The notes beneath the pieces were generated by a model that had not been told where the DNA came from, did no database searches, and was given only the letters and a program-made list of their open reading frames with translations. A DNA stretch of 61,742 nt, filler included, from Hausera hauseri (taxonomy: Eukaryota): assembly GCA_046269625.1 (NCBI GenBank). It is 10 parts of 10 records of this genome, joined end to end, with 100 filler letters (N's around TTAATTAATTAA, not from the genome) between each part and the next. Parts side by side here need not be neighbours in the genome. Positions count along the whole stretch, not along the records: positions 1 to 5,939 come from JBJURY010165643.1; 9 more parts are not named here. One strand, 5' to 3'. Below are positions 1-61,742 of the stretch, in pieces. Position numbers and translations under genes: made by a program. The first letter of the stretch is position 1. Each line of letters starts with the position of its first letter.

Positions 1-104
1 CTTTCTCTGGGATTTGGCTCCAACTTATAACTATGGTAGGGTTTAATTCTAACTATTCGGGTGTAACTTCCGTGTGACTAGTATTTAAAATTAGCGGCTT
101 CGGC

Positions 105-239
105 CCGGCATACTGGACATGTGGTCTTTCCATTATCTAGCGTCCATTTCTCCAGGCAGTCTCGACAAAACTTGTGTCTGCAATATGGATTATTTAATAC
201 TACATATCCTTGCTTCAGGTTCCCTTCACATACTGGACA
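105..239 (-). CDS. C3HC4 RING finger (putative E3 ubiquitin ligase domain)
   Basis: CPVC-x15-CRHKFCRDC-x3-W-x8-CPVCR. Confidence 0.92.
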
Positions 240-1260
240 CTCGTCTTCTTCTTTTGCCCATTTCTCATCATCTAAATCGAATCGTGATGTGATCTCTATG
301 GGTTCTGCTGTCAAACCGTCTTCCTCTTGATATAAGTAAGCGTCTATTCTCTTTTGCTTCGGGTTTATCGAGCTTTTCTTAGGATCGCATCCAACGGCTA
401 TTGGGGCCCAATTGCTGTTAGTATCTCGATCTAAATCGGGAACTTCACCAGCCGATCGATATTTTTGGTACTGTTTCTTTAGTAGTAGCTTAACTGATTT
501 GTCCACCGGGACTAAGATTTTACCACTCCGTTTAGATTGAAATATTGGGGCAATGTATTTTCCGATTTTTGGATTTTCCCAGACATACGTGTTCTCGTAA
601 ACCTGTAGGCAAGCAATAGTTTGACAAAAAACATTGCTTCTTTAATCTTCTGCCTACTATAGTACTCAGTGACTACTAACATCCTGGGGTAATCTGCCGT
701 AGTAACATAATGAACGTTTTCCGTGGATGTCTTTTTTCGTAATACGTTTATTTCTGTTACTTGTTCTTTCCGTTGGCTTGGTTTTTCCGTATACTTCTCA
801 ATACGGGACTGCGTATTTAGTTTTGAAGGTTTTTCTGCCGGTTGTTTTGATTTTGGATCTTTTCTATCTGACCTGTGTTCTTCCTTTAGCCCCTTTTCTC
901 CTTCTTTATTTTTCTTCTTGAATAAATAATCGGAAAAGGAGGTTTTTCTCTTTGTTGGTTTCCCGGTTTCGGTTTCTGAATTTCCATGTTTTTCTTCTAT
1001 GTATTTCCGAGAAACTTCTGGTATCTTAAATAAACTATTATCCGCTGTAGCGCCATTACTTGTACTGGGTTTTTCATCCATCCGTATCTTATTTTCCTTT
1101 TTCTCCGTTCTTAATCCTTGTATAGTTATTTGGTAGTTCCATTCTGGTTTGATCTCGATATTTTTGGGTGGAGAGTATAGGCGAACATGTTTACGGTATC
1201 GTGTGCTGAGTCTTTTGGATTTTGGGAAATTTCGTAAGTTTTGTGCAGGGTTGCTGGGAA

Positions 1261-1780
1261 TCCATTCATGTTCCCACTCTAATCCAGCATTTATATCCCT
1301 TAGATGTTGGGATCTCTGATTTGCAGTTAGCACTCTGCTTATTTTTATATTTCCCCCGGTCATGGCCTCTACCATTAATTTAAAACGGCCTTCCATGATT
1401 AGTGGTATATTACTCTTTTTTTCTTCTACCTTAATTCCCACTTGTCACATAATAGTTGGGTATGTTTCTATCTCTCTCACTCCGGTTATATAAGTTACCG
1501 GTATGGCTAGTTTCTTCATTATCCTCTCTACTTAATACCCCACTAAGACGTATCCACAGAGGCATTGAGCTACTTCTTGCTGCACTAACTTGACATCTTT
1601 TCCATGATTCAATTGCTCTTTTTTAATTCCAGTAACTTCTGAGTAAGTTTCAAGCACTTTCCGTCTTCGGTTAATGATTTCCGAATAGACCTCGGCCCCG
1701 TCTTCTTCTCGGATGGATATTTCGATTGCAATGTAATTTCCTTTTTCTCCTTCCCCATAATTTATCGCGGCAATCCTGAG
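1261..1780 (-). CDS. REX4/ISG20-like DEDDh exonuclease domain, catalytically degenerate
   Basis: VYSEIINRRRKVLETYSEVTGIKKEQLNHGKDVKLVQQEVAQCLCGYVLVGY follows the REX4/ISG20 pattern (..VxDYRTxVSGIxxxxLxxGxxxxxVQxEVAxxLxGRILVGH); the ExoI DCE motif is replaced by AINY. Confidence 0.7.
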
Positions 1781-2435
1781 ATTTTTTTCATCAGCCACCA
1801 GTCTGAACGAGTGCAAGTGGGTATCTTGTTCCTCCTTTGTGGGCCTTTGCCTAAACTTTCAGGGTGGTAACGGTATAAGTATTTCTTCTTCTTCTGTTGT
1901 TTCGATCATCATTTTTACCGGCAAGGCAGCTACGCGAAATTCTAACTCGTAATTGTATAAGTTTCTACTGTTGAATACAAATGTACTAAACCGACTTTGT
2001 CTTCCTTGGAAGGAATCCCATTTCTGATCCTTTAGTCGATGGTATATCTCCCCGTCTGCCAAGTGCACATAAATCTTCTGTTCCTTCTCTGGTTGGTATT
2101 GAGCGATTGGTTTGAAAGGGTATGCCCTAGCATCTTTATCTTCCCTCCATGCGTACAAATATACTGCTCGTGCCTCCTTGGTTGTTCCTTTTAGTCCATT
2201 CGGTATTTCGTCAACCTTCCCGTATTGTACGAAACTTTTTCCTTGTATTTTTATGTTTATTTGCCTATAGACGGCCTTTGAATTTGGGATCCGCACTGTT
2301 ACGTAGTTCTGTAGGAATTCGTCGATACTAGGTCGACTGGTCATTTCATCCATGTGGATCCTAAGTCGGCTCGGATCTTCCTTGGCGTCGATACTAATTC
2401 GGCTTGGTTCCATCTGTGTCTGAGTACTTACCAAT

Positions 2436-2462
2436 CTGAACAAAAGAACATAAAGGTTAATC
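2436..2462 (-). promoter_or_regulatory. Candidate splice acceptor for the accessory ORF
   Basis: Minus strand reads gaTTAACctttatgttcttttgttCAG|attg: branch-like TTAAC, pyrimidine tract and CAG just upstream of the ORF's first ATG (2413). Confidence 0.45.
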
Positions 2463-2556
2463 TTAAAACAAAGGGTGGTTTTAAACCCAAACCAATTCTT
2501 TGTTTGATGACAGAATAACCTGATCTGTAATTGTCAGGTTATTTTATCATATGGAT

Positions 2557-3859
2557 CTACGGGGTCTCCAATTCCCTTAGTTCCCATTCTGAATTTTTAT
2601 GACGCTTAGAATAACATTTTTTGGTGACTAGTCGAAAAATCGCAATTAATATAATGAGAACAAATGCTGAAAGTACGGAAATGGATACAATTGGTAGTGT
2701 GGTTAATCTTAGTGGTGCTTGAGTAGTAATTGATGTTGTGGTTTCGTCGTTTATATCTTCACGTGTATGCGGTTTCGCATGATTTTCTTCTAGAGTATGC
2801 AGTGTAATTGTTTGGGTTGCTTTATTCTCTGCAGACACTTGTATTATGTATTCAGGTTGTGGTTTTAGTAAATTGCACTCTGTTTGATAAGTATTTTTAA
2901 ATAGAGTTACCATTTGCTTATTATATGTGGTCCTCCTGTTTTTCCTCCACAGAGAACACGATTTTATATCGTTTGGCCGAAAATTTGATAGTTATATTTT
3001 CCAACTCTACTTTATGTACGTCGTTTGTCGTAAGAGCTCGATCAGCTTTATTAGTCGTAATTTCCACTGAAATTTTCTAAATCTTATTTTCCGGATAGTA
3101 AGTTCGTAATTGTATGCTTGTCTTATTTGGTCGCACCTCGTATAAGGCAAATCTTATTCTCAATTCTTGGTTCACCGGCAGTTTGCAGCAGGGGTGCTTT
3201 ACACCTGCGCGAATAGAGCAATATTCTATTTCCGGGGTCGGTCCAGTGGTTGCTTTAAATCTAATACTAATTTCTCGGCTATCTGTTAATTTTATCCGGG
3301 TATCTACTTGGACGCATTGTCTTGCCTTGTTAACCACAATTCTCTGAATATTCTTGTCTAATAATTTTATATCTGGATCCGTATATTGCAGCATTTCGTT
3401 CAGTTCTATTTCACGGCTTTTTACTCATGTAGGGATAATTAATTGAAATGGTGGCTTTAATTCATAAATTTTAGATAAACTTGGTACGTACAGTTGATAA
3501 GTAAGGTTGTAGGCACATCGGAAATCTACGTCGCAACATTTCGTATACTTTCCGTATTCAAAATCACAGTTTTTGGTTTCCTCCGTATTTATATTGTCCA
3601 AGAAAATTTTGAATCTTCCAAAATCATAATGTGATTTCTGCACCCTGAACCCGACGCATGTGGAGTTTGGCAAATAGAAATGAATTGACATTGATTGTAA
3701 TAATCTTTGAATTTTTCCGATTGATCGTTTTCTTTCTGCAACAAATCTGTCGTGCCACTTTTTTGCTTGTGTTCTCGGAATGTAAGAAGCAATTAACGAT
3801 AGTGCTAAAACTATCTGAACATATAAGATTGGTCTGGTTACTATTGACGAAGTTTTCAC
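2557..3859 (-). pseudogene. Predicted type-I membrane glycoprotein (~430 aa) in frame with the integrase C-terminus; fragmented into ORFs 3425-3859, 3077-3394 and 2557-2913
   Basis: Signal-like ILYVQIVLALSLIASYIPRTQA; two repeats CV...C-x9-CC...LY; FN3-like LKPQPEYIIQVSAEN; Thr-rich stalk; TM IVSISVLSAFVLIILIAIF; basic tail; sequons NST, NLT, NKT, NIT. Confidence 0.7.
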
Positions 3860-3894
3860 CTCGCGTTGGCGTAAATTATAACGTTTGTTGGGTC

Positions 3895-4880
3895 ATATTT
3901 CTGTCTTGACAGCTCTTTGTACTGATATGACTTCTTTTCCATTTTTGTTAATATATACTGTAGTTGGCGTAACCCTTGTAACTTCGTACGGTCCTCTACC
4001 TGTACGAGTCAATTTTAATGAAGTGCCTTTTATGGCTACTGGATAATGTACATAAACCCAATTTTTTTGTTCTATATAATGTGGTTTCGCTTTCTTATAA
4101 TATTGCTTCTTAAACTGTTCCTGATATTCTTGGGATAGTTCTTTGGCGATTCCTCAACACTTTTGCAACCGCGTTTGCAACACCTCTGCGAAATTCTGTT
4201 CTAGATCTTCGGAATTAACTGTGTATGGCTTCATTCCTAAGTCCGTGGGCAACACGGCTTCACCTCCGTACATCATAAAAATGGCGTAAATCCTGTCGCT
4301 GGATGTGGTGTGGTATTAATTGCAAATTGAGTTCCCTCCAAAAACTCGTCCCAGTCCTTTTGGTCCTTAGCCACTACTGTAGATATTATATGTATGACGG
4401 TAGCATTCATCCGTTCGACCATTTCATTACATTGAGGATGATATGCAGTAGTTGTTAATCGTTCAGTTTCAAATATTTGGTGATTTTCTCAAATAATTCA
4501 CTGGTAAAATTTCTTCCTCGATCCGTGAGTATCTGGTCTGGGGATCCATATCGACAAATAATTCTTCATACAACGGCTTCTGCTAAAGTTTCAGCTTTCT
4601 GATCTATCAGTGCTATCAATTCGACAAAATGAGTTAGGCGATCGGTGCATGTCAAGATATACTTATTGTTCTTGTGAGTCGTAGGAAGAGGTCCTACTAT
4701 ATCCATCGACATGGCCTGCATGGGCCTATCGGGCACATTGATTGGTTTTAATTCAGCCCTGTAGTTTTTTGTCTTTTTCTGTTTAGTTGTACACACTTCA
4801 CAGGCATTCACCCGATTTTTCACGTCAATATAGATACTAGGCCAAAAATATTTATTCATTACTCTTTCTAATGTTTCCTT
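3895..4880 (-). pseudogene. Gypsy integrase (HHCC zinc finger, DDE core, GPY/F), interrupted by stops and frameshifts
   Basis: H..GH at the end of the 4881 ORF, then YFWP..CEVC, MDIVGPLP, YGSPDQILTDRGRNFTS, TTAYHPQCNEMVER, GPYEV. Confidence 0.93.
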
Positions 4881-5939
4881 CTAAGACATGTGTCCGGCTA
4901 AGTATGAGTCATGTTCTGATATCAGCACTTCGGTTAGTAAACTTTTTGCAATAACCATTAGCTGTCTTCTCTTTCTTTCGTAATATAAAATATCCTCATC
5001 ACTCTTGTCATTTATGATGCGATATTTGTGTCCATGTCTACGTAAATGCTCCTTTAACTGTCGTCCTTTCGGCTCGACATACCTTTTTGCAAATTCTATA
5101 ATCTGCTGGATGACCTTATCCTTTGTTTGTTCTGCTGAAATTTTAATGGTCTTCTCAATCGTTAACGCGAGTTGACGGTCTATCATTTCCTCAAGTTGAT
5201 TTTTCTTCATTACGGTGATTGCGCTTGTTTTAGTCTTTAATCTCGATAGTGCATCAGCGTCTACATGTTTATTTCCTGGCTTATACTGGAATTCAATATT
5301 ATATCTGGAGATTTCTTTGATCCATCTATTAAGTCTGCACACCGGGTTATTGGCTAGACCCTTTAAGGTCGTAACGGCCTTGTGGTCAGTGACAATTATA
5401 ATTTTCTGCCCGTAAACATAAACGTTAAAATGTCGAAGTGCTTCCTTTACCGCTAGAGTTTCTAATTCGGTAACAGAATAATTTTTCTCAGCTTTTTTCA
5501 AAGAACGTCCTCCATAAGAAATTGGATGTTTTAATTCTTCATCCTCTCTTTTCTGTGCTAATTCATATCCAATACCTTCCTTACTGGCGTCTGTTTCAAT
5601 TATAAGCGGTAAGGTAAAATCTGGATATCGCAAAACGGGTTCATTTGTTAATGTTTTCTTCATCTCATCAAAAGCCTTCTGCTTAACGTCTGTCCATTTC
5701 CATTTGATTCCTTTCTTAAGTAAGCGATATAGAGGTGCATTAATCTTTGAATTATCTGGTACATAGGTTGCGTAATAACCACAGAGTCCCAACCAGTGTC
5801 TTAACTCTTTCTGATTTTGCGGTTCCATGCAATCTGATATTTTGTTCAATAATGATTTATCAGGTTTCGATCCTCCTTCTCCAACTATATGGCCAAGGTA
5901 GGATACGGCATTTTGAGCCCATTTGCATTTCTTCGGATT
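4881..5939 (-). pseudogene. pol: Gypsy pol: RT C-terminus/connection and RNase H
   Basis: KKCKWAQNAVSYLGHIV, WLGLCGYY, PVLRYPDF, IIETDAS, NYSVTELETLAV, VTDHKA, YKPGNKHVDADALSR; a frameshift lies near 5850. Confidence 0.95.
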
Positions 5940-8430: not shown

Positions 8431-8838
8431 CAAAAAGTATTAAGTCCTGCCTTTTAACATAGTTTGACAGAAATGTATTACTCTGATCACTGTTTTAACT
8501 TAAGTATTGATGTGCTGAACCGTATAGCTGCGCAGCAAACATCTTGAAATTGGTACATTAATATGTTTGTCACGTTTGGTGGATTGTACTTTAAGGTCAG
8601 AGCCAGGGTGCAGACAGAGGCAAGGAGTTGTAATCTACAACTAAAAATGTAATAACAAAACAAAATGCTGTCGTGGCAGCAAACATCAAAAACCAAAACC
8701 TCTTGCAGAGCAGGGCCCTCATGCATAAAGACTGAGAGCAGCTGCTGGTGCCGCGCGGACCGCCCTGTCCCCGCCCACAAATAAATATGCTAATTAGTAT
8801 AAATACAGTGCAGGCTTCCTCCCTTCATCCAAATAACC

Positions 8839-9652
8839 ATGGCAACAGCATTGAGCAACACCAAAAAAGAAATTTCACTGAATGTGAAGTAGAGGTGTTA
8901 GTGTCAGAGGTTGAGGCAAGAAAACAACTTCTATTTGGAAGTCCCTCCTCTGGGATTACTGATAAAATGAAAAGAAATGAGTGTCAGAAAGTAGAAGATG
9001 CAGTTAACGCGGCAGGAGCACAATTGAGATCACTGTCCGAAGTTAAGAACAAATGGTCCCACATCAAGGTGGATGTGAAGAAGAGGGTTGCTGCACATCG
9101 CCGGAGTGTTTCAGCCACAGGTGGAGGCCCAGGTTTACCGGAGCTGACTCCACATGAAGAACGAGTTGCTGCAATGATTGGGGAGACAGCGCTCGTTGGC
9201 ATCCTGCCAGCACATGAAGCTGAATCTGACATGATTGGTGTGTATGATATGTAAAGAAGTCCTTTCATTATGTTAGTCTAGACAGGTAAATATATTGTGA
9301 CCTATCATTAAGCAGAGTGAGACTCTGAGTTATTCAAGTGTTTTTATTGGCAGATCAAGTGGAAACCGGGGAATGCAGTGCCAGAGACACAGAAGAACCC
9401 GGTTCTGCATCCAGCTTCTCCACAGGACCCCCGACAGCCCCTCACTCGGAGCAACAGGAGGCGCCTGAAGCAGAGGCACCGCGGGCCTCGGTTGGAGGAG
9501 GTCATCAGTCAGGCCGGGTGCTGACCAATGCTGTGCTGCAGTCACAGAGGGACATTGTCCAAACAATGAGGGACATTTGTGCTGAATTACAGCAAACCAA
9601 CAGGCTTTTGACTGATATCAGTGAGTCATTAAAGAAACTGGCTGAAAAATAA
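8839..9652 (+). pseudogene. Harbinger Myb/SANT-like DNA-binding protein, two exons
   Basis: KRNFTECEVEVLV..LFG..AVNA..RS..EVKNKWSHIK..ATGGG. The Kozak ATG at 8839 is 1 nt out of frame (A-run 8863-8868). Intron ~9238-9353; exon 2 to 9652. Confidence 0.85.
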
Positions 9653-39470: not shown

Positions 39471-40983
39471 TCAGACAGGCCAAGTGCACTGGTTTCTGTT
39501 CTTTTTATCTTCACTTTCGACATCAGCTCCTCGTTCAATAAAATGTTTCACCACATCGAAATGTCTTCCAATTGTTACTCTATGGATTGGATTTTCATTG
39601 AAATTATTCTGGCACTCAATATCCGCACCATGATCAATAAGGTATTGTACAACATCAAAATGACCATTGTCCAAAGCCAAATGAAGGGGTCTTTCTCGAT
39701 TCTTAACTTGCGGTTCAAAATTCGCGCCATATTGGATTAAAACCTCTAAAACCTTCAAGGAACTTTTTGAAGCAGCTTTGTGTATCGGTCGAGATTTTAA
39801 ATAAAGATCGACAGTGTTCTCGGATTTATAGAATGCCGTGCGTTGTGCATAACCAGTTAGTGATGACCAATTACCAGATTTCTTTTCAAACCTATTTACG
39901 CAGTCTACACTAAGTCCATTTTGTAAAAATAATTCCAGAAATTCAACATGTTCCTCGTTACACGCAATCTGAATAGGCGTGTCACCATTAGTGTCTTCAC
40001 AATCAGTATTTGACCCAGACTTCATGAGGTAGTCCACCACAGCAACATGACCCCGATATGATGCCATATGAATGGCGGATCGTTTGTTTTTATCTTGACT
40101 TTCAATATCCACATCTTTTCGAACGAGTATTTTAACTACAGATAAATGGCCATTGTAAGCTGCTTTGTGAATTGGTCTTTCTAAGTCCTCGCCTTTATAT
40201 TTCATATCAGCACCGGTATTTATCAAAAATTCCACAACATCGGAATTACCACTAGACGACGCCATGTGAATGGGTCTAAGTTTGTTCTGATTCTGACATT
40301 CAACATCAGCACTGTTGGTGAACAACAAACTCACCGCTGATAATTGACCATTATTCGCTGCTTTATGAATGGGTCTTTCATTACACATTATGGCATTCAA
40401 TGTCTGCCTGATGATCTATCAAAAACTGCATGATATCGACGTGATCGCCGGCAGCGGCCAGATGAATCGCTCTATTTTTAATTATGTCAAAACTGTCAAT
40501 ATCTACTCCGTGTTTAACAAGCAACTTTACAGCATCTGTTAATCCCTGACTTGTAGCTACATGGATCAGATTAGAATTAGAATTCTCTATTTCAATATTC
40601 GCCCCACTGTTCACAAGAAATTGAATTAATTAAATGTTTCTACTTTTCATAGCTTTGAAAATCGGAGATTCGTCATTATTATCCATACATTCGATGTCTA
40701 CGCCTTGATTTATTAAATACTTGACAACCTTTAACTGACCCTTTTCGGCTGCCATATGTATTGGTCTTCGTTTGTTAATGTTTACACATTCGATATCGAC
40801 ACTGCTGTCCCATTTAAAAATTGTTCCATTACCCCATACTGCTGATAGCTGATTGTCTCTGTAAATAATCCGAAAAACAAAATCACAGTTGCGATGGTTT
40901 GATACTAAATCATCATCCGCATGAGATTCTTCACTTTTTGTTTCCGATGACGTTTCAACAGCACGTTTACGTGATCTTTTCAT
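39471..40983 (-). pseudogene. Intronless multi-ankyrin-repeat gene, frameshifted into three ORFs
   Basis: More than ten 33-aa repeats of the form RPIHxAAxxGHxxVVxxLIxxGADIE; basic N-terminus MKRSRKR. Confidence 0.9.
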
Positions 40984-42455
40984 ACTAGATAAAAGATTAG
41001 ATGGAATAGGTCTTTTCCGTTTCGTTGTCGTGTTGTTTTCTTTATATATCGGAGAATTAATACTTTTAGGACGTGAGAGTTTGGGAAAACCCTTTGCGGT
41101 GTCTCTAATATGAAAGAATGGGGGTCTAAAGTTTCATCGGGCTCTAAGCCATTTTATAAACAAATAAGAAAGTGCAATAAATGACCACCGGACGGAAAAT
41201 GTAGAGGAGGTTGTTGAACACCGACTTGCTTACAAACCATACCCGCACAACTGTAAACAGGCAGGAAAGAGGCATTAGTGTTTCACTGATAAGTTGCAGC
41301 CTCGCATTTGTCACAGGTGTAAGTGGCTAATTTCGCGAAAGGTTTAACTTGAGTAGTAACAGTTTAAATTTTAATAAGGTGGCCAAATTTATCAGATAAA
41401 AAATATTGCCAGTTGCAACAGTTGATACAAAATTTATAGCAATAAAATAAGCTTCATGCCTTCTCAATAATTNNNNNNNNNNNNNNNNNNNNNNNNNNNN
41501 NNNNNNNNNNNNNNNNTTAATTAATTAANNNNNNNNNNNNNNNNNNNNNNNNNNNNNNNNNNNNNNNNNNNNTTCGCCCGTGATGTAGTTGTAGTGTGTG
41601 TTGCCTGTAACGTTTTCTGTGTTAGATGTGCCTAACGAAGACTTCGTTGGTCGTAACGTAGTTTCTTTTGTCTTTTTTCACCATCCTCGTAAGACTTCAT
41701 CACCCAGTTTATATTTTTTTCCCACTACTCCATTGTACAACATATATACGGCATGTCCTCCCGAAATGTTAAATATATACGGCAACAAGGCGGAAGATAT
41801 CGTCAAATCCAATGTCACTAAAAAATGATGTATCGTACAAGGAAAGAATAAGTGACGGACATTTTTCACGATGTCTAGCGGCTGGACAAAGAAGCAGAAA
41901 CAGTTCTGTTGTCTTTCCCTTCAGATGCCATTTGGTTAACCCACCAGGCAGTTTACTGTTGAACTACGTCTGGCTTTCTTTGCTTCAAACTCCAGAAATT
42001 GCAAAATTCTCCATCTGTTGACTTCTTATCACATGCCCACATAGTTTTGCTTGCTCTTTTTTTAATGCCACTAGTAAGTCTGTGCTGTTTTATAACTTCA
42101 CTCGGGACATTTTGACTTGTTTTCTTTGCTGTCAAATGTGATAGAATCCTATCACTCCACTGAGTGGATGGCCGGATATAGTGAGGTTGAGTGGCCGAAC
42201 TCACCAAATTGGTTCGGACAATGTCACCCTTAACTTTCGTGACTCGCACTCTTGGCTTTCGTGATCCTCGTACTTCTGTGCTACGTTGTGACGAATCAAC
42301 CCAAGTAACTGCTGAGGATACAGGATCTCCTGCTTAAACTTGTCCTAGCACACATGTCTCAACCACTAATAAGATGAACACACAAAACTCCACATAGGAG
42401 GAACCTGACATGAAGCCTTGCATTAATTAAATATAATTTTATAAGATTTAATAAA

Positions 42456-47561: not shown

Positions 47562-47688
47562 TCTGTCCATTTCCATTTAATTCCCTTTTTAAGTAGGCGA
47601 TAAAGGGGTGCATTTATTCTTGAATTATCTGGCACATAAGTTGCATAATATCCGCATAGTTCTAGTCAATGCCTTAACTCTTTCTGTT
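47562..47688 (-). pseudogene. RT connection segment joined directly to the post-protease region (RT core deleted)
   Basis: QKELRH*LELCGYYATYVPDNSRINAPLYRLLKKGIKWKWT, near-identical to C1 5690-5815. Confidence 0.88.
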
Positions 47689-47805
47689 GTATTTGTGCAT
47701 AAATTATTAACTCTGTTCTAGGTGGAATGTTCTCATCTACTGGTATCCACAATTTTCCAAATTTCCTATCCTTAGCCTTTTTTACGTCTTTATTTGGTCT
47801 AATTT

Positions 47806-48294
47806 CTAATTTCCTGTTTGTAAATTAATTGCTATATTTGGTAGTCTTTTCAGTAGATCACATCCTAAAACTACGTCGTCAGTTAGTTGTTCCATAACTG
47901 CAAATTCGTGACAGAAAAACTGTCCAGCAATTTGAACTTCTGGATTCCATTTAAACATCGGTTTCGACATTTGGCCAAAAGCTCCTGTACTTCCTGGATC
48001 TTTTGAAGATGATGGGTATAATTGTCTTCTCAACGTTTGAGGTATTGATTCATTTTTGATGTAGGACATCTCGGAACCTGTATCGATTAATGCATAAATT
48101 TCCAAATCTTTAATAGTAATTTTGGTGAAGGGTCTTCCTTCTATTACTGTTCCGAAAGAGTTTGATGCAGCTTTTGGGCGTTTAACTGCCGATATTTTAT
48201 GTCCATTGATTCGGATTTCTGGGGAGGAAATCATATTTTCTGACAATTGTTTTAGTTCTCCGTTTGGATATAATTCATTGTTTTCTATATTCAA
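47806..48294 (-). CDS. Retroviral-type aspartic protease
   Basis: IYALIDTGSEMSYI ... DDVVLGCDLL. Confidence 0.93.
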   Translation of the reverse strand: MNIENNELYPNGELKQLSENMISSPEIRINGHKISAVKRPKAASNSFGTVIEGRPFTKITIKDLEIYALIDTGSEMSYIKNESIPQTLRRQLYPSSSKDPGSTGAFGQMSKPMFKWNPEVQIAGQFFCHEFAVMEQLTDDVVLGCDLLKRLPNIAINLQTGN

Positions 48295-48789
48295 TACTTC
48301 CGCTTCCTGTGTACTAATTAATGGTTCTCGGTTGTTAGTATGTTATATATTCTGAAAAGTTTTTAACCTTGGATTTTCCCAGAGTAGTAGTCTAGTTTCT
48401 ATATTTCGGGGTTCTCTCGGGAAATATAACATTCTGGGGTCGTCGAGGGGCCGTCGATAACACATTTTCCGTAGGACTCCGTAACGTTTCGTTCCTTCAT
48501 AAGGGTCTTCTAAACTAATTATCCTTTTATAGATTTCCATCTGATATGAATTTATGGATCGTTTGTCACAGTCTTCATAGACCGGGGTGGTAGTTGGTAG
48601 CATAGCCAATGGTGCTTTAATGATCGAATACGTTTTATGCCTGTTGGTTCCTGAAAGTACTTCTCCTCCCTTAGGCTCATCATCATCTGAATTATTTCGT
48701 CGTATATTAGGTTTTGTAAGTTTCCGTTTATACAATAACATAGGCCTTCCTTTTCGTTTACGATTATAATATCCGACATAGCGTTCCAC

Positions 48790-50590
48790 GTCCGATTCTC
48801 TTCGTATGATTTTAAGAATTTCCCAAAAGGCGTTATGATAGCAGTCAGTATTTTACATGAAAATCCGGTCAACGTAAATATTTCGTACCCGTTAATTATT
48901 GCTGGGATGACTGCCTTATTCATTTGTATTAAAAAATATATCGCTAAGAATCCATATACGGCTTGTCCAAAAATCAAAAATCTTCCCAAAATTTTGCAGA
49001 GTATTTGGGTAGTTAATCGCTGATAATGGTTTACTACGGGCAAGGATTCCCATTTAGCTTGATGTCGAGTATCGTCTACTACAGAGGCCATGGCTCGATT
49101 TAATTTGTGTGTCCGCTGTCGCGGAAAAGCGAGGAATTGTCTGAAAGCTTCGCTTTCCTTAGGTCTATATATGCCTTTTAACGAGGTATCTTGGAATTTG
49201 TCGTCTGTAATTCCTTTTGCAAGATTTGTTCCTGTTAATTTGTTTGGAGCGGCAGTAATACCCCCATTTGGTAAACTAACCCAATCCGTTTCACTTCGTC
49301 TAAAAATGGGTTCTCCTAGGCTTGCTTTACAATCTTTAAGGATCGTCGGTTCCGGTGCATTGTCTAATAGCACTCTAGTGAGTGGCATAGCTAACCTTGG
49401 ACTATTTTGGTAAATAAAGGGAAGTTCTTGCATGCAGCGTTTTCCTTCAACGTTAATTGGCACATCTCTTTTCTCACATTTGTAAGTTAATAGTACTTCA
49501 CCAGTAATACGACCAAAAATTCCTTCTCTCATGGGAATTATTGGCATAAATAAAAGCCATTTTTGTCCTCATGATTTCCATGTCCAATTTACAATCATTA
49601 TTCCTACTTGCGCTTTGTAATAGAAGTAATCGTCTCTGTTTTTCAGATAGTCCTCAATTCGGATATCTTGCGTTTCTAACTTGTAAGTCTTTAAATTTAT
49701 CTCCGTCTCCGCGACAAAAATGCTTTGTAATTGATGGCGAACATCACTACCTGGCAACGTGAAATCAATTCTTTCTTAATGAATTTTAGTCCATGTTAAT
49801 TGGAAACTAATATCGTACGTGTATGATGCTCCAGAATGTCCTCGCGTTTTCTTGAACTGATGATGGAATTGTCTACATATCGTTTTCTGGTAGTTTCGTT
49901 AAATTTCAATTCTCTAATTTTGATAAAATTACAGCTTTTCCCAGGGCGGTTGCCATATTATAACCGAACTTCTAAAAGCACAAGTTCCGTCTTGTATATG
50001 ACATTTTCGATTTTTGGTATATAGCTTGGTAACACTGTGGAACATCGTTTTCTGTGCTCGCATTTCTGATTCATAGAAATCTACAACCACAACGTTTGCC
50101 TCTAATCCTTTTCCAGTGTCATATTCGGCTCCATTGCATTGTCCATTGTGCATATCCAATCTTCCGACTCCTATTTTGTATGCTCTTATTATTTTTCCCG
50201 GTTGCGTCTCTATTTCCATGCTATCCCAATTTAACTTCCCGGTCTCTCTGGTCTGCTTGCAATGCTGATGTTCCAAATTCATTGGTATTGGAGGAGTCGT
50301 TGGTTTAATTATCGGTGAATGTCCGTGCATTAGCCCACAGTAAAAAATGCTACGAGATCGTCTCAACATACATTCCATTCCGTCTAATGAAATCAATTTT
50401 TGTTGCTGGTATAAAAAATAATTTTTCTCTATTGTTTCCAATTTGTGCGGTTTGCGTCTTCGCACGATTCGAGATCCATCAACGAATACTTCTGTCCGAG
50501 CTTAAACCTGTCGCAATCGTAAATAGTAACGGCACCCATTTGTTTAACCAACATCATTATAGTGAGTAAGCTAATTAGCCAGTTGGACTC
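48790..50590 (-). pseudogene. env: Envelope glycoprotein, chuvirus-G/gB-like (class III fusogen), copy 1
   Basis: Internal signal WLISLLTIMMLVKQMGA, then YDC..YSLMDLESC, CMLRRSRSIFYCGLMHGHS, GQCNGAEY, GEVLLTYKC, RCMQELP, KGIYRPKESEAFRQFLAFP; TM FLIFGQAVYGFLAIYFLI. Confidence 0.82.
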
Positions 50591-53500
50591 ACTTTTTCTA
50601 TTATTACTATCCGTGATTGCCGGATTCCGTAAAATTTCTCCCAATCAATTTTTACTGGCTCTTTTGTCTTCTTCCCTATCAAATAATTTTGACCAATTTA
50701 TTTTACTGGGTAGTTTCCTAGCGGCCTTCCGGGCTAAACTTGTAGCCCGATTGAACTCATTTTCTCGGTTTGGATTTGTCATAATGGCTAAATATAACAT
50801 TATTTTTCTTAATTCTTTCTTTGTATTTTGTACCATTATTTTTTCAACTACTGTTTCATCATTTAGATTACCTTTCGATAACTTGAAACGTGTATTCTTC
50901 ATGATCTTGGCTGCATTAAAAATTGCTTTTTCTTTATCGTCTAATGTATCACCTCAAGGACCCGAATAATTTACGATTCGTATCAAATTCCTTAATAATT
51001 CGTTTAGTTCCTCGTTACCCGTACTGAAGGTGGGGATCGACAATTGTCGCAATTCTTTAATCAATTCTTCATTATAATCGACATCTCGGACTATTTTAGG
51101 TCTACCTACTGGGCGTCTTTGCTTCTGAGCGGTAATCGATGTTTTGTTCAGTGGAACCAAATTTTTATAATATTGTTCGTTATCTTCATGCGTTTGTAAA
51201 TATTCGAAGTACATTGCCGCATCTTGGACTCCCATAATTTGTCCTACGCATTGTTCTGCCTTGGCTTTACGCGTAGCTTCTTCCTTAGTCTGTTCGTTGG
51301 CTATTGTTACCACTAGTTGGTTTGTCTCATTAGGTATAATCCCGACATTTATTAGTTGTTCTAAATCATCTAATATTCCATCTCTCAAATAAAATCTATA
51401 GTTTAATTCCTTCGATCCTCCATTATTCATCAACCACTCTCTTACGTCCTTTACATAGGAATAAGTGGTTAACTCACATTCTTTTTCGTCCATCCATTAT
51501 GATAATATTTTCATTTTCATTATCCGCTCGGGTTTAGCCGTCAAGATTTTAGCGTATATTTTTATCAGTAATTTCGGCACAGTACTATAAATTGTGTTCT
51601 CAGTAGATAATTTAGTCAGAGTTGGAATAAGTTTTCTCAATCTACTCTCGTTAATATTTACGTCAATTAATTTAATTAAATCCTTTTCTGTTAGCACCGA
51701 ATCCAAAAGCATCTCCACGTCAATTCTCTTACTTCGTAGATCTGTTTCTATTTCGTTCAATTGTATTGAAATCACCGGGTTTTCATTATTTATCGTATCT
51801 AGGTAAATATCCCATTCTGGATCATGTCCAACTCCTGGAAGTCCGTAATCTATTAACGTTGTACTTGTTCTCTGTACATTTTCGCGGATTTCTTTTAATC
51901 TGGGTTGTATTTCTTTCATTTGTGTGGTACGAAAACCCACTCCGTTTCCCTCAAGCATATTGGATTTGCTTTAGTAGATCACCAAGTTCACTAGAATTAA
52001 TAAGTCCTTTTTGGTGATAATCGGTTAGTTCGATAATTACATATTTTTGCAATCTTTGTACGAACTCTACCTTGTTTTTAATTTCGGATTCGGTAAAAAC
52101 GTATTTGTTCCGGTAGATTTCGAGTTCTTTTACTAACTCATCTAACCTTGTTGCTCTTTGTTTAGTCTTAATGCATGTTTCGTCCATCTGTCTTATCCTA
52201 GGTATCAGTTGTCTCCTCTTCTCATCATTAATTTCTGCCATCTATACTAGCAGAAAGACTAGTTCATACATCTCATTTATGACTCTTGAGTAGGGGTCCA
52301 ATGCATCTAGTAGCTTCTTTACGACTTGGATTCTTCAAAACTGAGGTATTGATTGTTTCTTATTTTGTCAATTCGATATGATAATTCTGATCTGTCTCGA
52401 ACATCCATTCTTGTAGTCTATGCAAAAATTTTATTGTTGCTGTTAAGGCGACTATATGTGCTGGACAAATGTCTAGGGTTTCGATGTCTTGGATTGAAAT
52501 CTCATTGATATGTCTTTCTGTTAAATGTTGGACTCCTTCTAACCAGAGATTTCTTAGTCTTGAATAAAAATTACAAGTCATATTCTGCTTTGTATAAAAT
52601 TGGTTTCTTCAATCATTTTATAAATTTCTTCCATTATCGTCATTTCTTGCTTCTTCTTCATGAAGTTTAGTGGTCGTAAAGCTTCAAATCGGTTTCGGAT
52701 GTTTATTTCTGCTAGTATCGTATCTAAATTACGAGCATGTTCTTCTAATTGTTTCTTTACCGATGGTTCACTTTCCGGAAATTCTTTCTTTCGATCTTCC
52801 ACTAATTTGCTTAATAGCATTATAGTTCAGACCATTTCGATAGATGATTAGCAATTATTTGCTTTGCCAGTATAGCTCTATCTAACATGTTATATGCATC
52901 CTTTAACTCGTCGTCTAAACCCTTTATAAATTTCATAATTCGGCTAATATATTGGAACTCATCTTTATATTCATCAAACTCTATGATACACGACTTTACT
53001 ACATATTGGGTTTCTTCATGGTTTGGAGTCATGATCCGGTTCTTCAGTTTGCAAATTTGCACCCGTTTTTCATTTTTAACTTTGATTCAGTCCTCTAAAT
53101 TCGTATACCGTTTCGGTGAGTCAAAAGCAGTTCTTACCATTTCCATCAATGGAGGAATATCTATTGGGTCTATGCCCAATATTTCTAAATCAATGTTACC
53201 TCGTTTGCTGATCGGTTTTTCTCTAAGTCGATTAATCATTGCATAACGAATTTCGTGTACCATACGTTTTAAGTTACGGACTACTTGTTTTAGCTTCGGA
53301 TTCTCTTCTAGCATGGACAGTAACGTCTGTGCTTTAGTGACTTTCACGTCAATACTCTCTTCATTTTTGTTCCATCCTTCCGAAAATTCAACCACACTTT
53401 TAATCCATGATTCTAATTTGTGTTTCCATTTTAATAATGTTTCGGTAGATATTTCTTTGGGTTATTCTGACTCTACTGTTCCATTGAGCTTCCCTTCGCT

Positions 53501-54280
53501 GTACAGTTTTAGCTTTTATATAACCTCTCGACATACTGTTGGTCTTTTCCCGATATTTCTGCTTGTTTGCTAATTTGTCTGAGTCTTTCTAAATTTCGCT
53601 GTAATAATTCCGGGTCGTGACACCTAATTCTCATTTTCTTCAACTCATCGGCATTTTTCCAAGAATGTCTAACTTTCCACCTCTTTGGATTAAATCGTCC
53701 TGATTATTAATTTTTTCCGTTTCTTCCTCATTAATGGGTAGTGGGCAGATCTCGTTGATTTCGTTAAGTGACTCGGTAGATCCTTTTATCTCGGTAGGGG
53801 TGATTTGGTTATTTTCGGTTGTACTTAAACTAAGTTCTAGTTTGCTTCCTAGGTTGACGTTAGTATTCTTTACTTCTTCTGTTCTAGTTAGTTGTGAGCG
53901 TGAGTGACTTCTACGTCTTGTTTTTAGAGAAGGACTACGACCCATATTTTTCGTAATTTTAAGTATCTATGGTTCCATGAAGTCTCTTTCTGCTAGAGCA
54001 TCATCTGTCGGCTTATCTACCTTTTTGATAGTGAACTCAGGCTCTGTATCTAAATCGACTTCCGTCGAAGTTCCTGGTTTCTCTCCTATTTTATTGCTTG
54101 TCAGAATACTCTTTTTTCGCGTCATATCAGTTCGTTTGAGTGCTATAGCACGTTCGTATTCCGTTTCCGGTTCTATCAACCCGTGGTACACTTCTAATAA
54201 CCTTAGCTTATTTTCATATTCCCTCCTAACCGTTAAAATCTGTGGGTTAATAGTTTCCGGCTGGGGGACTAAGAATTTCT
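50590..54280 (-). pseudogene. ~1100-1200-aa unknown, charged and probably helical region between the Gag zinc knuckle and the glycoprotein
   Basis: Ten abutting ORF fragments; the C-terminal part is conserved in C10 (61145-61742). Confidence 0.7.
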
Positions 54281-54281
54281 G

Positions 54282-55442
54282 CTAATCTTGTATATCGATT
54301 ATAGTACCTGTATCTCGGCGCGCTGCGTATTTAGCTTCTAAGTTCTCATTAATTTTGAATATACTAGTTTTACTAGGTTCGGTTAAAGAAACACTACGCA
54401 GATTTGGACATGACTCTTCAATATGGCCTTCTTTACCACACGTAAAACAGATAAAGGTTTCCTTTTCTGCCGACTCTTTGTCCACCATCTTCGTTCACTG
54501 GTGATTTAGACCTATTGGAGCTCCTGTTATATCGATTAGATGAACCTTGTATGCCTTCTATGCTTCGCCGACTATTATTAGTTCGATTGTCATCATGGTG
54601 ATTTTGAAAATTTAGGTCTCTATAGTTTCCTTGGTTTCTATTGACATTGAAATTTGACCTATTCGTATTCCGTTCGTTTGGGAAGTAGTTATTCCGACTA
54701 TTCCTATAATTATTATTACTATTTCTATCCCCATAATTTTTATTAGTAGCAAATCTTCTCTTCCGCGGTTATCGACCCGATTCCTATCGCTACGATCATT
54801 GGTTCTATCGTTCCTCTCGTTGTGATTGACATACCCATCAAGTGCCATTTCTAAGTCTTGGGCTAGTCGTAATGTCCCTTCGAAAATTTCTGGTCTGGCT
54901 AGAATCAATTGTTTAACTAAATTTCGGGACCAGATACCATTAATAAATTGAGTCGTCATCATGACGTCTAAGTCTGGAGGGGTTGCCTTCTCTGCGGCAT
55001 CCCGTTCTGCGTCCGATTTGGCTTTGGCTACATGGGCTATCCTCAGTGTGCTCATATAAATATTTGCAAGTTTCTTCAACGCAAACGCAAACTGGGTTAC
55101 CGATTCACTCTTTTGTTGCGTTCTATTCTGAAATGCCATAAGCTTCTGTTGTGGCGTAACTTTCGGCAATAATTTACGGTTTAATGCTCCTACTAAGGAG
55201 GACAAAGTTTTCTTTTCCTCATTCGTGAGTTCGCTGTAAGCATCATCGGCTAGATTTTTCAGATATAACGACAAGCGTTTGATCATTACTTCAGGGGTTA
55301 AGCTAGCACCTTCTGCGTGTAATTTGTAAGTTCTTAAAAATTCATTTAGTCCATCTGGATCACCATCGTATGGTGGCAGGTTCAGAGAATCAAAAGTGAA
55401 AATGTCTAACTTCTGCGCTACTAGTTGATTATCTGCTTCCAT
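54282..55442 (-). pseudogene. gag: Gag: retrotransposon capsid domain, N/R-rich linker and CCHC zinc knuckle
   Basis: LPPYDGDP..FL..Y, YLKNLADDAY, QQKSESVTQFAFALKKLA, QFINGI; CFTCGKEGHIEESC; frameshifts around the N/R-rich linker. Confidence 0.9.
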
Positions 55443-55796
55443 GTGATTAATTTCAGAGTTAGTTTTGTTGATTTTATGTTTCTCAAGTGGGATTTTAAAT
55501 TGCTTATTTTGTTCAGTGACATCTATCTTATTTCTATTCTCTGAATTTGAACTTCTATCTGTCTTGGTAAATATATCAACGTGTTTGACGTATAGGTGAA
55601 ATATCCCTTAACACAAGGTTGGCCTTTGATTTATCAATATAGGTTCTCAAATTTTATGTTATTTATCCCCGTTTTAAGCCTATAAACCCAATTTAGTTTT
55701 CCGTTCCAACTATATCAGTTATTCGATATAGGTGGCGCTGTTCGCCGGTGTGTGTTTATTTAACTCTCTATAGTAAAGTCTAGAGAGGTACAAACT

Positions 55797-55814
55797 GTCC
55801 GGCTAGGGTTGCCA
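55797..55814 (-). promoter_or_regulatory. Primer-binding site TGGCAACCCTAGCCGGAC (possibly tRNA-Arg)
   Basis: ...ACA-TTT-TGG junction, complementary to a tRNA 3' end ...GGTTGCCA. The tRNA identity is unverified. Confidence 0.7.
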
Positions 55815-55817
55815 AAA

Positions 55818-57198
55818 TGTTATAGTGTGGGTTGGCCCTTATCGTCTCCCGCCATAACAGAAATTATGCGAAGTTTTAATCGTTTATATGTTAGGATTAT
55901 TCGATCTCGAATAATCAGTTTGTACCTTATGAACGTTGAATAAATTATCGACTAATATGCAGGTACTGCGTGTCGGAGATGAATGTCTCAGATTAATTCG
56001 TTCTGTACTTATCTAGTGATTTTACTCTTGATTTTAAACTTAATGTGAGTCCAATCGGTTTTAAGAAGCGATGAGAAATTATAAATCAATTACACAGAAA
56101 AATTTTATTTAACTCAAAATTACCAAGTTTCTAACAATAACCACAATATCGAAGATCAATGTCTATGAATTTTTGGTTCAACCAATTCAGCAAGGTCTTT
56201 AATTCACCCACAGGTAAATCACGGAAAATCAACTTTAATCAAAGTCTGATAACTATGTTTTTCTTGTCCTTTATATAGTCTCGCTGCAACAATAATTTTT
56301 CCTATACTTGCATTAATTTAGATATTTTCTTGTTTTCAATTACTCGCCCACGTTTTTTATTAGTTTTTCTGACAGTTTAATCCATTTCCAGTCTGATGTT
56401 TCATTCCATTTGCGATCATAAATCATTAAATTTCTGGTTTTAATTATGAAATATTAATTCAATCATGCTTTCTGGTTACGAATTCCTCAATTATTCAATT
56501 TTATATACAACGGCTAATTTAGTAATTTCTACCTAAACATGACAGCTGCTACATTATTTACAAGCTTGCTGCATTGCTGACAGCTAATACACTATTTACA
56601 ACATTTGTAAACGTCAAAATTAGATTATGGAATTTTGTACTGAGATGGGTCTGTGAGGAATAATCGTTCGGTATCACTTTTATAAATTGAGTGAGTTCGG
56701 TAGTATTGAATGAGTGATTCGATTGTGCTGAATACTTTCCGACCGACGTGGAGTTCATTGTTTTTAAGGTAAACTTGAAAATCTTGAAAATGTCCCTGCT
56801 GTAGTTAAATGTCAGAAAACAGATAATATTCCAGGTGCAAAGGTTTCAGTCTTTGATTATGTAATCGGAGCTTTACAAAAGAGCGAGTTGAATGAACTGA
56901 GAGAACTTATTTTGTAACGTGTTATGCTTGTCGCAGATAATACTTCTGGTCCTAAGTAAAAGCTTAAGTTGACGACTGACATTTGAACAGGTCTTGATGA
57001 ATTTCATGAATTGTTATTTGCGTTTGATGAATTTCTTTGTAACGTTGCGATATTTTTACTATTGGTACCACTGGTATTTAAGTGACTAAGTATATAAAAT
57101 TTGAAATTTTCAAAATACGATTTTTCACTGTCATTTTATTCGCATTGGACAGTTCGGCGATTTTTAGCAGATGTGTTGTGAAAAACGTCAGTGTAACA
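55818..57198 (-). repeat. Candidate 5' LTR (~1.38 kb)
   Basis: Minus strand TGTTACACTG...CACTATAACA (8/10 inverted termini); TATATAAAG at ~56268-56277; AATAAA at ~56104-56109; ends 3 nt before the PBS. The outer boundary is tentative. Confidence 0.65.
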
Positions 57199-57380
57199 TA
57201 ATGCACAAGTGATAATCAAGGTAGAGAGTCTCTTGATTGTTCAAAACGCTCTTTCTGATTTTTGGACTGTGGTGGTGCCCNNNNNNNNNNNNNNNNNNNN
57301 NNNNNNNNNNNNNNNNNNNNNNNNTTAATTAATTAANNNNNNNNNNNNNNNNNNNNNNNNNNNNNNNNNNNNNNNNNNNN

Positions 57381-57830
57381 AAATGTCCTTCTTCTGTTTT
57401 TGATGCTATCATCACGTCATCTAAGTACGCGAAAGCATGATCAAGTCCCATGAGCATCTTATTCATCATTCTAGTAAAGATAGCTGGTCCGGTTGTGATA
57501 CCGAAGGGCATAACATTAAATTCGTATACGCCATCGTGCGTTTTAAATGCTGTTTTATATCGGTCTTCTTCTATTTCCACTTGCCAGTATCCTGATTGTA
57601 AGTCGAGAGTGGTAAACCATTTTGCTCCTGATAGTCTATCTAAAACGTCTTTCATCATCAGCGTGTTCAATGCCCGATAATCTATACAAAACCTGTGTTT
57701 TGTAGTCCCTTTCTTAACCATAAGTATAGGCGAGTACCATGATCGGTAGCTTGGCCGAATTATGTCGGCCTTTAACATTCGCTCTACTTTAGTTATCTCC
57801 GGTCTCAATGAATGAGGAGGCGGGTACCAC
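57381..57830 (-). pseudogene. pol: Gypsy reverse transcriptase core (truncated at the contig end)
   Basis: SPILMVKK..RFCIDYRALN..FTTLDLQSGYWQV..KTAFKT.DG.YEFNVMPFG..YLDD; the usual YPLP segment is deleted. Confidence 0.95.
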
Positions 57831-57835
57831 TTTGG

Positions 57836-58038
57836 CATTTTTTGTTCTATATCGATCTCGTCAATTGAGCCTGGTTTCTTCTTGAGCCTTGCTCTACCTG
57901 TCTTCTTTGTTTTGCGCAATTTGTTTTGTGCATTTTTTGTTCTAGATCGATCTCGTCAATTGAGCCTGGTTTCTTCCTTAATGGAATAGTTAATCTTAGA
58001 GCCTTTGCTCTACCTGTCTTCTTTGTTTTGCGCAATTT
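57836..58038. repeat. Local tandem duplication (~90-105 bp, 2 copies) upstream of RT
   Basis: cattttttgttcta.atcgatctcgtcaattgagcctggtttcttc...gctctacctgtcttctttgttttgcgcaatt occurs twice. Confidence 0.9.
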
Positions 58039-58104
58039 TGCGCTTCTTGAGAGAATTTAGTTTCAACATAAGGCGGAAATTCAGCGCACTTGTATGGTTT
58101 CTCT

Positions 58105-58730
58105 TCAATTGTTACCGCCGATACTCTGACCTAGAGTAGTGTTAGCGTGCAATCGTATAGGAGTTGGTGAACTGTTCACTAATCTGATGGGTATTCGTCC
58201 CGTCACTACTCTACATAGAATATTACTAAGCATGAGATTTGGTTTGAAATATACCGGTAGATCTTTATCTTGGCGAATCTGTGCAAAAATTATCATTTTA
58301 GTTCTAGACGGAATGTCCTCATCTACTGGAATCCATACTTCGCCTGATTTCCTTTTCTTTATTACTTTCGTCCCTTTTATTGGTCCGAGCTCAATTAATT
58401 TTCCATTATGCACATCAATTGCCATACCTGATATCTGTTTTAATACGTCACAACCCAGTACTACATCATCTGTTAATTGGTCCATTACTGCAAATTTATG
58501 TGAAAATGCTTGGCCCATCGTATAAACGGTTGCAGTCCACTTAAATTTTGACTTCGATATTTGCCCAAATGTTCCTACGCTACCTGGATCCGACGATGCG
58601 GGTGGACATAACTAGTCCCACAATGTGGTTGGTATTGATTCGTATTTTATAAACGATTTTTCTGATCCTGTGTCGATTAGCGCATACACCTCCCAATCTT
58701 CTATGTGTATTTTAGCGAAAGGTCTTCCTT
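58105..58730 (-). pseudogene. Aspartic protease and post-protease beta-rich domain, copy 2
   Basis: WEVYALIDTGSEKSFI (~58650-58695), DDVVLGCDVL, IPIRLVNSSPTPIRLHANTTLG. Confidence 0.88.
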
Positions 58731-59271
58731 CTGCTACTGTTCCACAGCAATTCGGCACTATCTTGGACCGTTTTATAGTGGAGACACTGTGTCTATTTAT
58801 CGTTATTTCTGGTAATTAAATGATACCTGTCTTAATTGTCTTAATTCCCCATTTGGGTACAAATCGTTATTTGTTATTTCCGTGACGCGGTTGTCAATGA
58901 GCGGTTCTTGAGGTAAGGGACCTGAGATTGAGCATAACCTCGGGTTCTCCCAGATCGTTGATTTCGATTCTATGTGCCGAGGTATCCTTTTCGAGTATAA
59001 TATTCCGTGGTCGTTTTCTGTTGGTCCGTTGTTGATAACGTTCATTTTGCGTAATACTCCATATTGTTTTTTTTTCCATAAGGGTCTTCATAATCCATGG
59101 GTTTTCGGTAGATATCAGATCTATAAGATATGACTGACTTTTGATCGCAGTCCTCGTAAATCGGCGCAGTTGGTGGCATGATGGGTATTGGTACGTATGT
59201 TCTATGTAACTTTATTCTAAAATTTCATTCTCCTCCCTTAGGCTCGTCATCATCTGAGTCATCTTTCCGCA

Positions 59272-61210: not shown

Positions 61211-61742
61211 GGATTCATTACCTCTATTTAAAAAAATATTTCGTATCATATCTTCCAACTTATTGGCCCATTTTTCATTTTCCTTTTTTTCAAATAATTT
61301 AGTCCACTTTATTTCTTTGGGCACCCTTTTCGCAGCTTTTCTAGCTAATCCAATTGTCTTTTCAAATTTGTTTTGCCGGAGAGGATTAGTTCTCACCACC
61401 AAGTATATCAAGACTTTCCTTAATTCTTCTGTCGTATTGTCTGTCATAATTTTGTCAATCACTATTTCGTCAGGGAAGGTGCTTTTAGATCATTTGAATC
61501 GTGAAGTTTTCATGGTCCGTTCTATATTATATATTATTCTTTCTTTTTCGGACAGTATGTCGCCTTGGAGTCCGGTATAGTTTACTATCCTAATTTAATC
61601 TCTCATTCGTTCTATCAATTCTTCGTTATCTGAGCTCGGAATAGGTACTGTAAGTTGTCTCAGTTCCCTAATCAAATCTGCATCATAATTTACTTCTTTT
61701 ATTTTTCTTGGTCTTCGGACTGGCCGTTTTGGTTTTACTGGT

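Follow-up and report, generated by a model that had tools for sequence, protein, structure and literature searches.

The decayed elements on three contigs of the analysed DNA (C1, C9 and C10) are probably fragments of three old sister subfamilies of a single GAG-ENV-POL Ty3/gypsy lineage, whose members would combine an internal env and a 3' cargo in one element with ~15 kb or more of internal sequence. The window, i.e. the whole stretch of 61,742 nucleotides (filler included) from the animal Hausera hauseri, consists of ten contigs with N-spacers between them, in which C1 occupies positions 1-5939, C9 positions 47562-57280 and C10 positions 57381-61742. Their genes are encoded on the minus strand; each copy is dead and decayed, and no contig of the window contains both env and cargo. 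By their pol order, as read from the sequence, they are members of the Ty3/gypsy LTR retrotransposons; this order (PR-RT-RH-IN) was assembled from C10 (PR-RT), C1 (RT end-RH-IN) and C9 (PR-thumb), all four domains being present in no single contig.

C9 carries a gag-like ORF (54408-55607, minus strand) with the first in-frame ATG at 55442 and one CCHC knuckle (54449-54408), revealed by the motif scan and by a zf-CCHC match below the cutoff (E 0.0013); the capsid part of this ORF gave no Pfam match. Between gag and env lies an accessory stretch of ~1,250 codons (50600-54400, minus strand), coiled-coil-like in character, in which a helical domain is common to C9 and C10 (50% identity). The segment 51523-51290 of C9 encodes a ubiquitin-like candidate, recognized by eye from what we take to be the ubiquitin fold pattern and from a low-confidence β-β-α-β model (pLDDT 48); neither this candidate nor a Bcl-2-like one, likewise located before env, found support in Pfam, PDB or Foldseek. 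The env region (48552-50578, minus strand) comprises an internal signal-peptide-like stretch (50578-50549), a predicted class III fusogen-like ectodomain (PF24664, E 1.6e-25 and 2.4e-10) and a putative membrane anchor near 48953 identified from motifs, and in C9 it is disrupted by stops and frameshifts. It precedes an aspartic protease with the start of a post-protease spacer (47691-48342, minus strand; PF00077, E 6.5e-7; DTG at ~48084), and from gag to the RT thumb C9 contains at least 26 breaks.

C10 (57381-61742, minus strand) was found by Pfam, blastn and motif analyses to encode the helical accessory domain, an env with PF24664, the protease and the spacer, as well as RT as far as a point shortly after the YLDD motif (57427), with the protease regions of C9 and C10 collinear down to 47691 and 58277, respectively. 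Env of class III type (PF24664), situated after gag and before protease as in GAG-ENV-POL gB-type errantiviruses, was recognized in C9 and C10, which thereby belong to that type; it matches the env of the natural polyprotein P0150. The window does not contain the 5' half of C1. The C10 spacer also contains a ~105-nt local duplication (57831-58038), just upstream of RT.

At 47687-47691 (minus strand) the post-protease sequence of C9 passes straight and in frame into the RT thumb, with one side of the junction matched by C10 (58277) and the other by the thumb of C1, and ~1 kb of sequence, with the catalytic core of RT, is absent there (47691-47687). The junction is in frame, collinear and same-strand; we infer that it is most simply an internal deletion of the RT core, in which case the thumb stub at 47562-47686 (minus strand), the sole overlap of C9 with C1, stands for C9's own pol. 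The stub forms the contig end, beside a rearrangement, and the link between C1 and C9 is indirect, because the 125 nt of C9 that provide it adjoin the in-frame discontinuity at which the RT core is missing.

The thumb stretch of C1 (5689-5813, minus strand) was aligned with the C9 stub by blastn at 83.2% identity (104/125 nt, E 1e-31). Codon comparison assigned 17 of the 21 mismatches to position 3, two to position 1 and two to position 2, and 38/41 residues are identical (pS 0.71, pN 0.02); the three differences in C9 are one stop and two substitutions. The initial annotation had reported this match, with differences mostly at third codon positions, within 2 nt of the coordinates given here; its own caveat was that the link rests on ~125 bp of a conserved region in diverged subfamilies, and the stretch is indeed 125 nt of highly conserved RT thumb, with synonymous sites near saturation. 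Since the RT thumb is conserved across all Gypsy elements, we measured the background among 151 database RNase H relatives, in which the best 41-residue window had 22/41 matching residues (median 16); C3, from the other Gypsy family of the window, matched the thumb at 11/41 residues and 45/123 nt. The value of 38/41, compared with at most 22/41 in the relatives and 11/41 in C3, indicates that the C1-C9 link is specific. The possibility that the stub is mis-joined C1 sequence was rejected on account of the identity of only 83%.

C9 and C10 are 69% identical over 3,535 nucleotide columns, with pS of 0.50-0.79 across six blocks, comparable to the pS of 0.71 between C9 and C1. This near saturation of synonymous sites indicates that C1, C9 and C10 represent old sister subfamilies and not copies of one insertion. 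According to the 80-80-80 rule, members of one TE family share at least 80% nucleotide identity over 80% of the element; C9 and C10 remain below this at 69%, and C1 and C9 reach 83%, yet over 125 nt only. The earlier assignment of C1 to the same family as C9 and C10 can therefore be retained in the sense of one lineage, on the basis of the thumb match, composition and even decay, but not in the sense of a strict family, given the near-saturated synonymous sites and the C9-C10 identity. As to composition, the coding strands of C1, the C9 stub and the C10 pol are A-rich (0.34-0.40) with G>C, in contrast to C3 and C7 (A 0.29-0.31, C>G).

In C1 the end of RT, the thumb, RNase H and integrase (zinc finger, core and GPY motif at 3994) were identified at 3900-5939 (minus strand; PF17919, E 2e-34; PF17921; PF00665). 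Beyond the integrase, hydropathy (2.37) and motifs predict a type I membrane protein (2557-3840, minus strand) with a signal-peptide-like stretch at ~3826, a Cys-containing ectodomain, a Thr-rich stalk, a TM helix at ~2706-2640 and a basic tail. No Pfam family matched this protein, whose signal-peptide-like stretch lies in one frame with the integrase tail, with one stop between them. The Atlas reported a bacterial RNase A-like match to part of it (0.92, low recognition 1533), probably due to chance, and gave no usable match for the 310-aa cargo ORF of C1. The segment 1280-2416 (minus strand) encodes an uncharacterised domain (from the ATG at 2413) and a DEDDh-exonuclease-like domain (~1759-1280). 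In the PDB search, DEDDh exonucleases (DnaQ, ISG20L2, SDN1) were the top three of the four matches, with weak E-values of 0.12-0.68 only, and the acidic catalytic motifs of the C1 domain look degenerate at the sequence level. The single-sequence folds were too low in confidence to be of use (pLDDT 31 and 48), and Foldseek found no match at E <= 0.001. The segment 78-641 (minus strand) contains a C3HC4 RING finger (239-108; PF13639, E 2.6e-10; PF00097, E 4.9e-9) and a stop at 78-80.

We found no LTR or PPT between the integrase and the RING of C1, and no PPT or 3' LTR in the 77 nt between the RING stop and the window start. The density of breaks is even along C1 (2.4-3.0/kb, versus 12.75 in shuffled sequence and 9.4-9.8 in two control contigs), and by its decay the cargo therefore behaves like the rest of the coding unit; the cargo and RH-IN also have the same strand, the same GC3 (0.34) and similar A-richness, and no intron-like gaps are present.

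C1 begins 18 residues past the end of C10, according to all 44 references used for the trees, and the two do not overlap. Trees were calculated with 44 of the 151 references (81 with a contiguous RT-IN stretch, then dereplicated) and then with 23 of those 44. C1 and C10 formed long, unresolved branches in the same broad region. The placement weights were 0.57 and 0.30 for C1 and 0.31 and 0.16 for C10; the second branch (0.30 and 0.16) is common to both, and the best branches differ. In the control, two pieces of C3 were placed together, on another clade. As the end of C10 (57381) and the start of C1 (5939) are separated by 18 codons, C10 and C1 may be two parts of a single subfamily, or even of a single locus that was divided during assembly.

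The top-scoring RH-IN relative of C1 is P0088, a one-ORF gag-env-pol polyprotein (37% identical), whose nearest tree neighbour has no env match. P0088 (2,338 aa) ends right after the integrase and P0150 (2,146 aa) within it, and the two are apart in the pol trees. Both have the PF24664 env, as do C9 and C10, and after it PR, RT, RH and IN, all in one frame; unlike C1 and C9, they have neither a long gag-env accessory stretch nor a match to the cargo, and their RH-IN is 35-37% identical. The Pfam scan covered nine of the 151 proteins, two of them with PF24664, and blastp with env queries covered all 151. Protein searches returned nothing for env among proteins of 591-2000 aa and 1780-5667 aa, and nothing for the cargo among proteins of 370-1178 aa. 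The RNase H of C1 was compared with 1.84 billion proteins, with at most 44% identity among the 150 matches listed. The viral-contig scans (0/14 and 0/285) and one metagenome scan (0/174) were negative; a second metagenome scan found relatives in 11/132 cases (28-38% identical), none of which matched env or cargo. Altogether, the protein, viral-contig and metagenome searches revealed no close relative of env or of the cargo, and no natural relative with both the env and the C1 cargo.

Read by the usual convention for LTR ends and primer-binding sites, C9 has a putative LTR 3' end (CA at 55819-55818), followed by a 3-nt spacer and a primer-binding-like site from the TGG at 55814 (55799-55822, minus strand). 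The region upstream (55818-57280, minus strand) is non-coding (break density 12.3/kb), and its TATA-like element (56277) and AATAAA (56109) suggest an LTR length of ~0.5 kb or more. A 5' boundary of the LTR was not found in C9, blastn detected no second copy of the upstream region within the window, and there is no LTR pair in the window, the single CA end and primer-binding-like site occurring in C9 only. The same region contains fragments of a host RhoGAP (57120-57263, minus strand; PF00620, E 3.3e-5, 24.3 bits versus a cutoff of 24.5) and of a host Nck-like SH2 domain (56652-56807, minus strand; phmmer against PDB, NCK1 SH2, E 1.2e-4; the remaining top PDB matches were SH2 domains too). Both fragments (56652-57263) are located 0.8-1.45 kb upstream of the putative LTR end and would belong either to a long LTR or to flanking DNA. 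The two ~1.4-kb LTRs of the initial annotation were assumed and not observed: the 1,463 nt are the distance from the CA end to the contig edge, they have no partner in the window and hold the RhoGAP and SH2 fragments, and C1 has no 3' LTR; we do not take LTRs of this length as established.

Added together, the internal parts measure 14,913-15,018 nt (8,129 + 971-1,076 + 5,813), in good agreement with the lengths proposed initially (~8.1, ~1.1-1.3 and ~5.8 kb), and this ~15 kb is a minimum, since C1 ends, without a PPT or LTR, only 77 nt beyond the RING stop. The complete element may have measured ~16 kb or more, with 17-18 kb possible; the earlier total of 17-18 kb depended on an LTR length that is not delimited, and what the contigs provide is 14.9-15.0 kb of internal sequence as a minimum. 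The earlier single ~4000-aa polyprotein likewise gives way to a range that depends on the end point: ~3,550-3,600 codons from gag to the end of the integrase, ~4,000-4,050 to the tail of the membrane protein and ~4,800-4,900 to the RING stop, with the ends of the ORFs unreadable because the copies are broken and decayed. A polyprotein of ~4000 aa would fit gag to membrane protein, and the exonuclease-RING part probably constitutes a separate ORF from the ATG at 2413.

An arrangement in which env and cargo never meet, i.e. modular subfamilies of one lineage of ~11-13 kb each, C1 having the cargo without an internal env (with its membrane protein in the usual env position) and C9 and C10 having env with little cargo, is unlikely, although several observations are in line with it: C1, C9 and C10 are synonymously near-saturated, natural P0088 stops right after the integrase, the gain and loss of ORF3 in rotifer elements is family-specific according to the available text of PMC5408684, and the bryozoan and Macrostomum GAG-ENV-POL elements for which LTRs were found measure ~10-13 kb in the supplement of PMC13524379, as far as it was available. 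C9 and C10, however, which are as distant from each other as C9 is from C1, keep env at the same place, which argues against the modular arrangement.

It is improbable that the last 125 nt of C9 originate from another element (through a template switch among co-packaged RNAs, a nested insertion or an assembly error), which would untie C1 from the env lineage. The position of the stub at the contig end, directly after an abrupt junction, and the non-identical tree placements of C1 and C10 would agree with such an origin, but the junction is in frame with the correct gene order, the stub is only 83% identical to C1 and hence not C1's own sequence mis-joined, and composition ties C1 to C10 independently of the stub. 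Far less credible is that the RING and exonuclease-like part of C1 is host DNA, flanking or captured. In favour of this, C1 contains no 3' LTR that would close the element, and host fragments (RhoGAP, SH2) do occur beside such elements; against this, the cargo shares with RH-IN its strand, decay rate, GC3 (0.34) and A-richness, with neither LTR or PPT between them nor intron-like gaps. The reading that we favour thus remains that of one lineage with internal env and 3' cargo in the same element.

The anatomy, together with general knowledge of Ty3/gypsy elements and viral polyproteins, suggests how such an element could work. One LTR-driven RNA would serve as both genome and message and yield a long polyprotein, in which internal signal peptides and anchors would direct the two membrane proteins, env and the one after the integrase, to the ER membrane for cleavage by the host signal peptidase, whereas Gag and Pol would be freed by the protease of the element. 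Entry would depend on the class III fusogen, with attachment as a possible role of the second membrane protein. The probably separate ORF of ~780 codons (ATG 2413) would combine a non-catalytic nucleic-acid-binding fold with a RING E3 that ubiquitinates host factors. Extending this, we tentatively speculate, with more doubt than confidence, about a Burro-related lineage of 16-18 kb with two surface proteins (the internal class III fusogen and a post-integrase, type I attachment-like protein) cut from a ~4,000-aa polyprotein by host signal peptidase, a pseudonuclease-RING E3 that recognises nucleic acid and ubiquitinates host defence factors, and LTRs with captured fragments of host signalling genes; this would be a design similar to that of complex retroviruses, arisen independently in invertebrate Ty3/gypsy elements.

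A large Gypsy element with an internal env and a ~4000-aa polyprotein is already known, from Burro/GYPSM1 and the GAG-ENV-POL errantiviruses. The Burro/GYPSM1 elements are planarian Ty3/gypsy elements of >30 kb in total, with an internal region of up to 25 kb and a 4,873-aa ORF, in which env, matching mononegavirus fusion proteins, lies in frame between gag and pol, and which have ubiquitin-like, Bcl-2-like, MATH, BIR and ankyrin motifs (PMC6431247, available text). The initial impression of a size well above that of typical Gypsy elements thus holds for ~15 kb or more of internal sequence, but next to Burro this size is not exceptional. Likenesses to Burro, as far as that text describes it, include env between gag and protease, a long gag-env accessory stretch, a PR-RT spacer and the length of the polyprotein (4,873-5,140 aa in Burro/GYPSM1, 4,800-4,900 codons from gag to RING here). 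Cargo of the ubiquitin/apoptosis type, as in Burro, may also be shared. Compared in the same way, the differences are the length of the internal region (15 kb or more here, up to 25 kb in Burro) and the number of CCHC knuckles (one here, 2-3 in Burro); moreover, the available Burro text mentions neither a post-integrase membrane protein nor an exonuclease-RING gene (PMC6431247). MATH, BIR, ankyrin and Bcl-2 had no Pfam match in the scanned frames of C1, C9 and C10, although decayed stretches and the 3' end may hide them. Because MATH, BIR and ankyrin were not found and the ubiquitin-like and Bcl-2-like calls are unconfirmed, we do not claim that C1, C9 and C10 belong to Burro; a named Burro sequence was returned by none of the searches.

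The GAG-ENV-POL errantiviruses with HSV/gB-type env described by Chary and Hayashi in Platyhelminthes, Bryozoa and Nematoda (PMC13524379, available text and supplement) have the same pol order (PR-RT-RH-IN) and a class III-type env between gag and pol; they are intact, whereas C1, C9 and C10 are dead. That survey used a 10 kb prefilter and accepted LTR pairs up to 14 kb apart, limits owing to which it would have missed elements such as those proposed here. All six Schmidtea rows of its supplement, in the part available, lack LTR and PBS, which would fit elements above the 14-kb limit, and its main text, as far as available, never uses the words 'accessory', 'zinc finger' or 'exonuclease' (PMC13524379). 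An accessory gene 3' of pol with an exonuclease fold, as in C1, is found in the rotifer elements Juno and Vesta, whose ORF3 encodes a DEDDy exonuclease with intact catalytic residues; the C1 domain is DEDDh-like, appears degenerate and is followed by RING, a word occurring 0 times in the available text of PMC5408684. C. elegans Cer1 (CERV) also has an accessory gene 3' of pol, with other domains (PMC10309623, available part), and the parts available of PMC8532177 and PMC11410931 hold nothing further on element structure. In the literature outside subscription papers and Repbase we found no description of a post-integrase membrane protein together with an exonuclease-RING gene in such an element. 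If env and 3' cargo do occur in one element, there are compact relatives of the planarian Burro design that are equipped with another surface protein and with an accessory gene encoding a RING, which would offer a handle on cell attachment and on the countering of host silencing by invertebrate retroelements; the dead and split copies analysed here are poor material on which to test the large internal-env Gypsy design.

A second Gypsy family of the window is represented by C3 (13793-18696) and C7 (35656-41472), both on the minus strand, which are 78.5% identical over 856 RT columns and differ from C1, C9 and C10 in composition and tree position. We considered whether C1 might be the 3' half of this family and rejected it, as C3 has its own thumb-RH-IN, with 11/41 identical residues, and both of its pieces fall on another clade. 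C3 contains ~1.3 kb of further minus-strand ORFs past the integrase, with no Pfam match. Upstream of the C7 Gypsy ORFs and on the same strand lie ankyrin-repeat ORFs (39471-41133, minus strand; Ank_2, E 1.5e-61), either cargo or a captured host gene. C8 (42437-47461) contains two 1.6-kb direct repeats, 89% identical and 3.4 kb apart; the interval is free of long ORFs, and the structure may be a non-autonomous LTR element or a tandem duplication. C5 (29030-29578, minus strand) shows a match to DUF3715 (E 3.6e-11) among broken ORFs, a domain that we presume to be associated with TASOR/TEX15, and the region 8736-9254 (plus strand) encodes a Myb/SANT-like DNA-binding domain (E 4.8e-16), presumably of the kind typical of Harbinger transposons.
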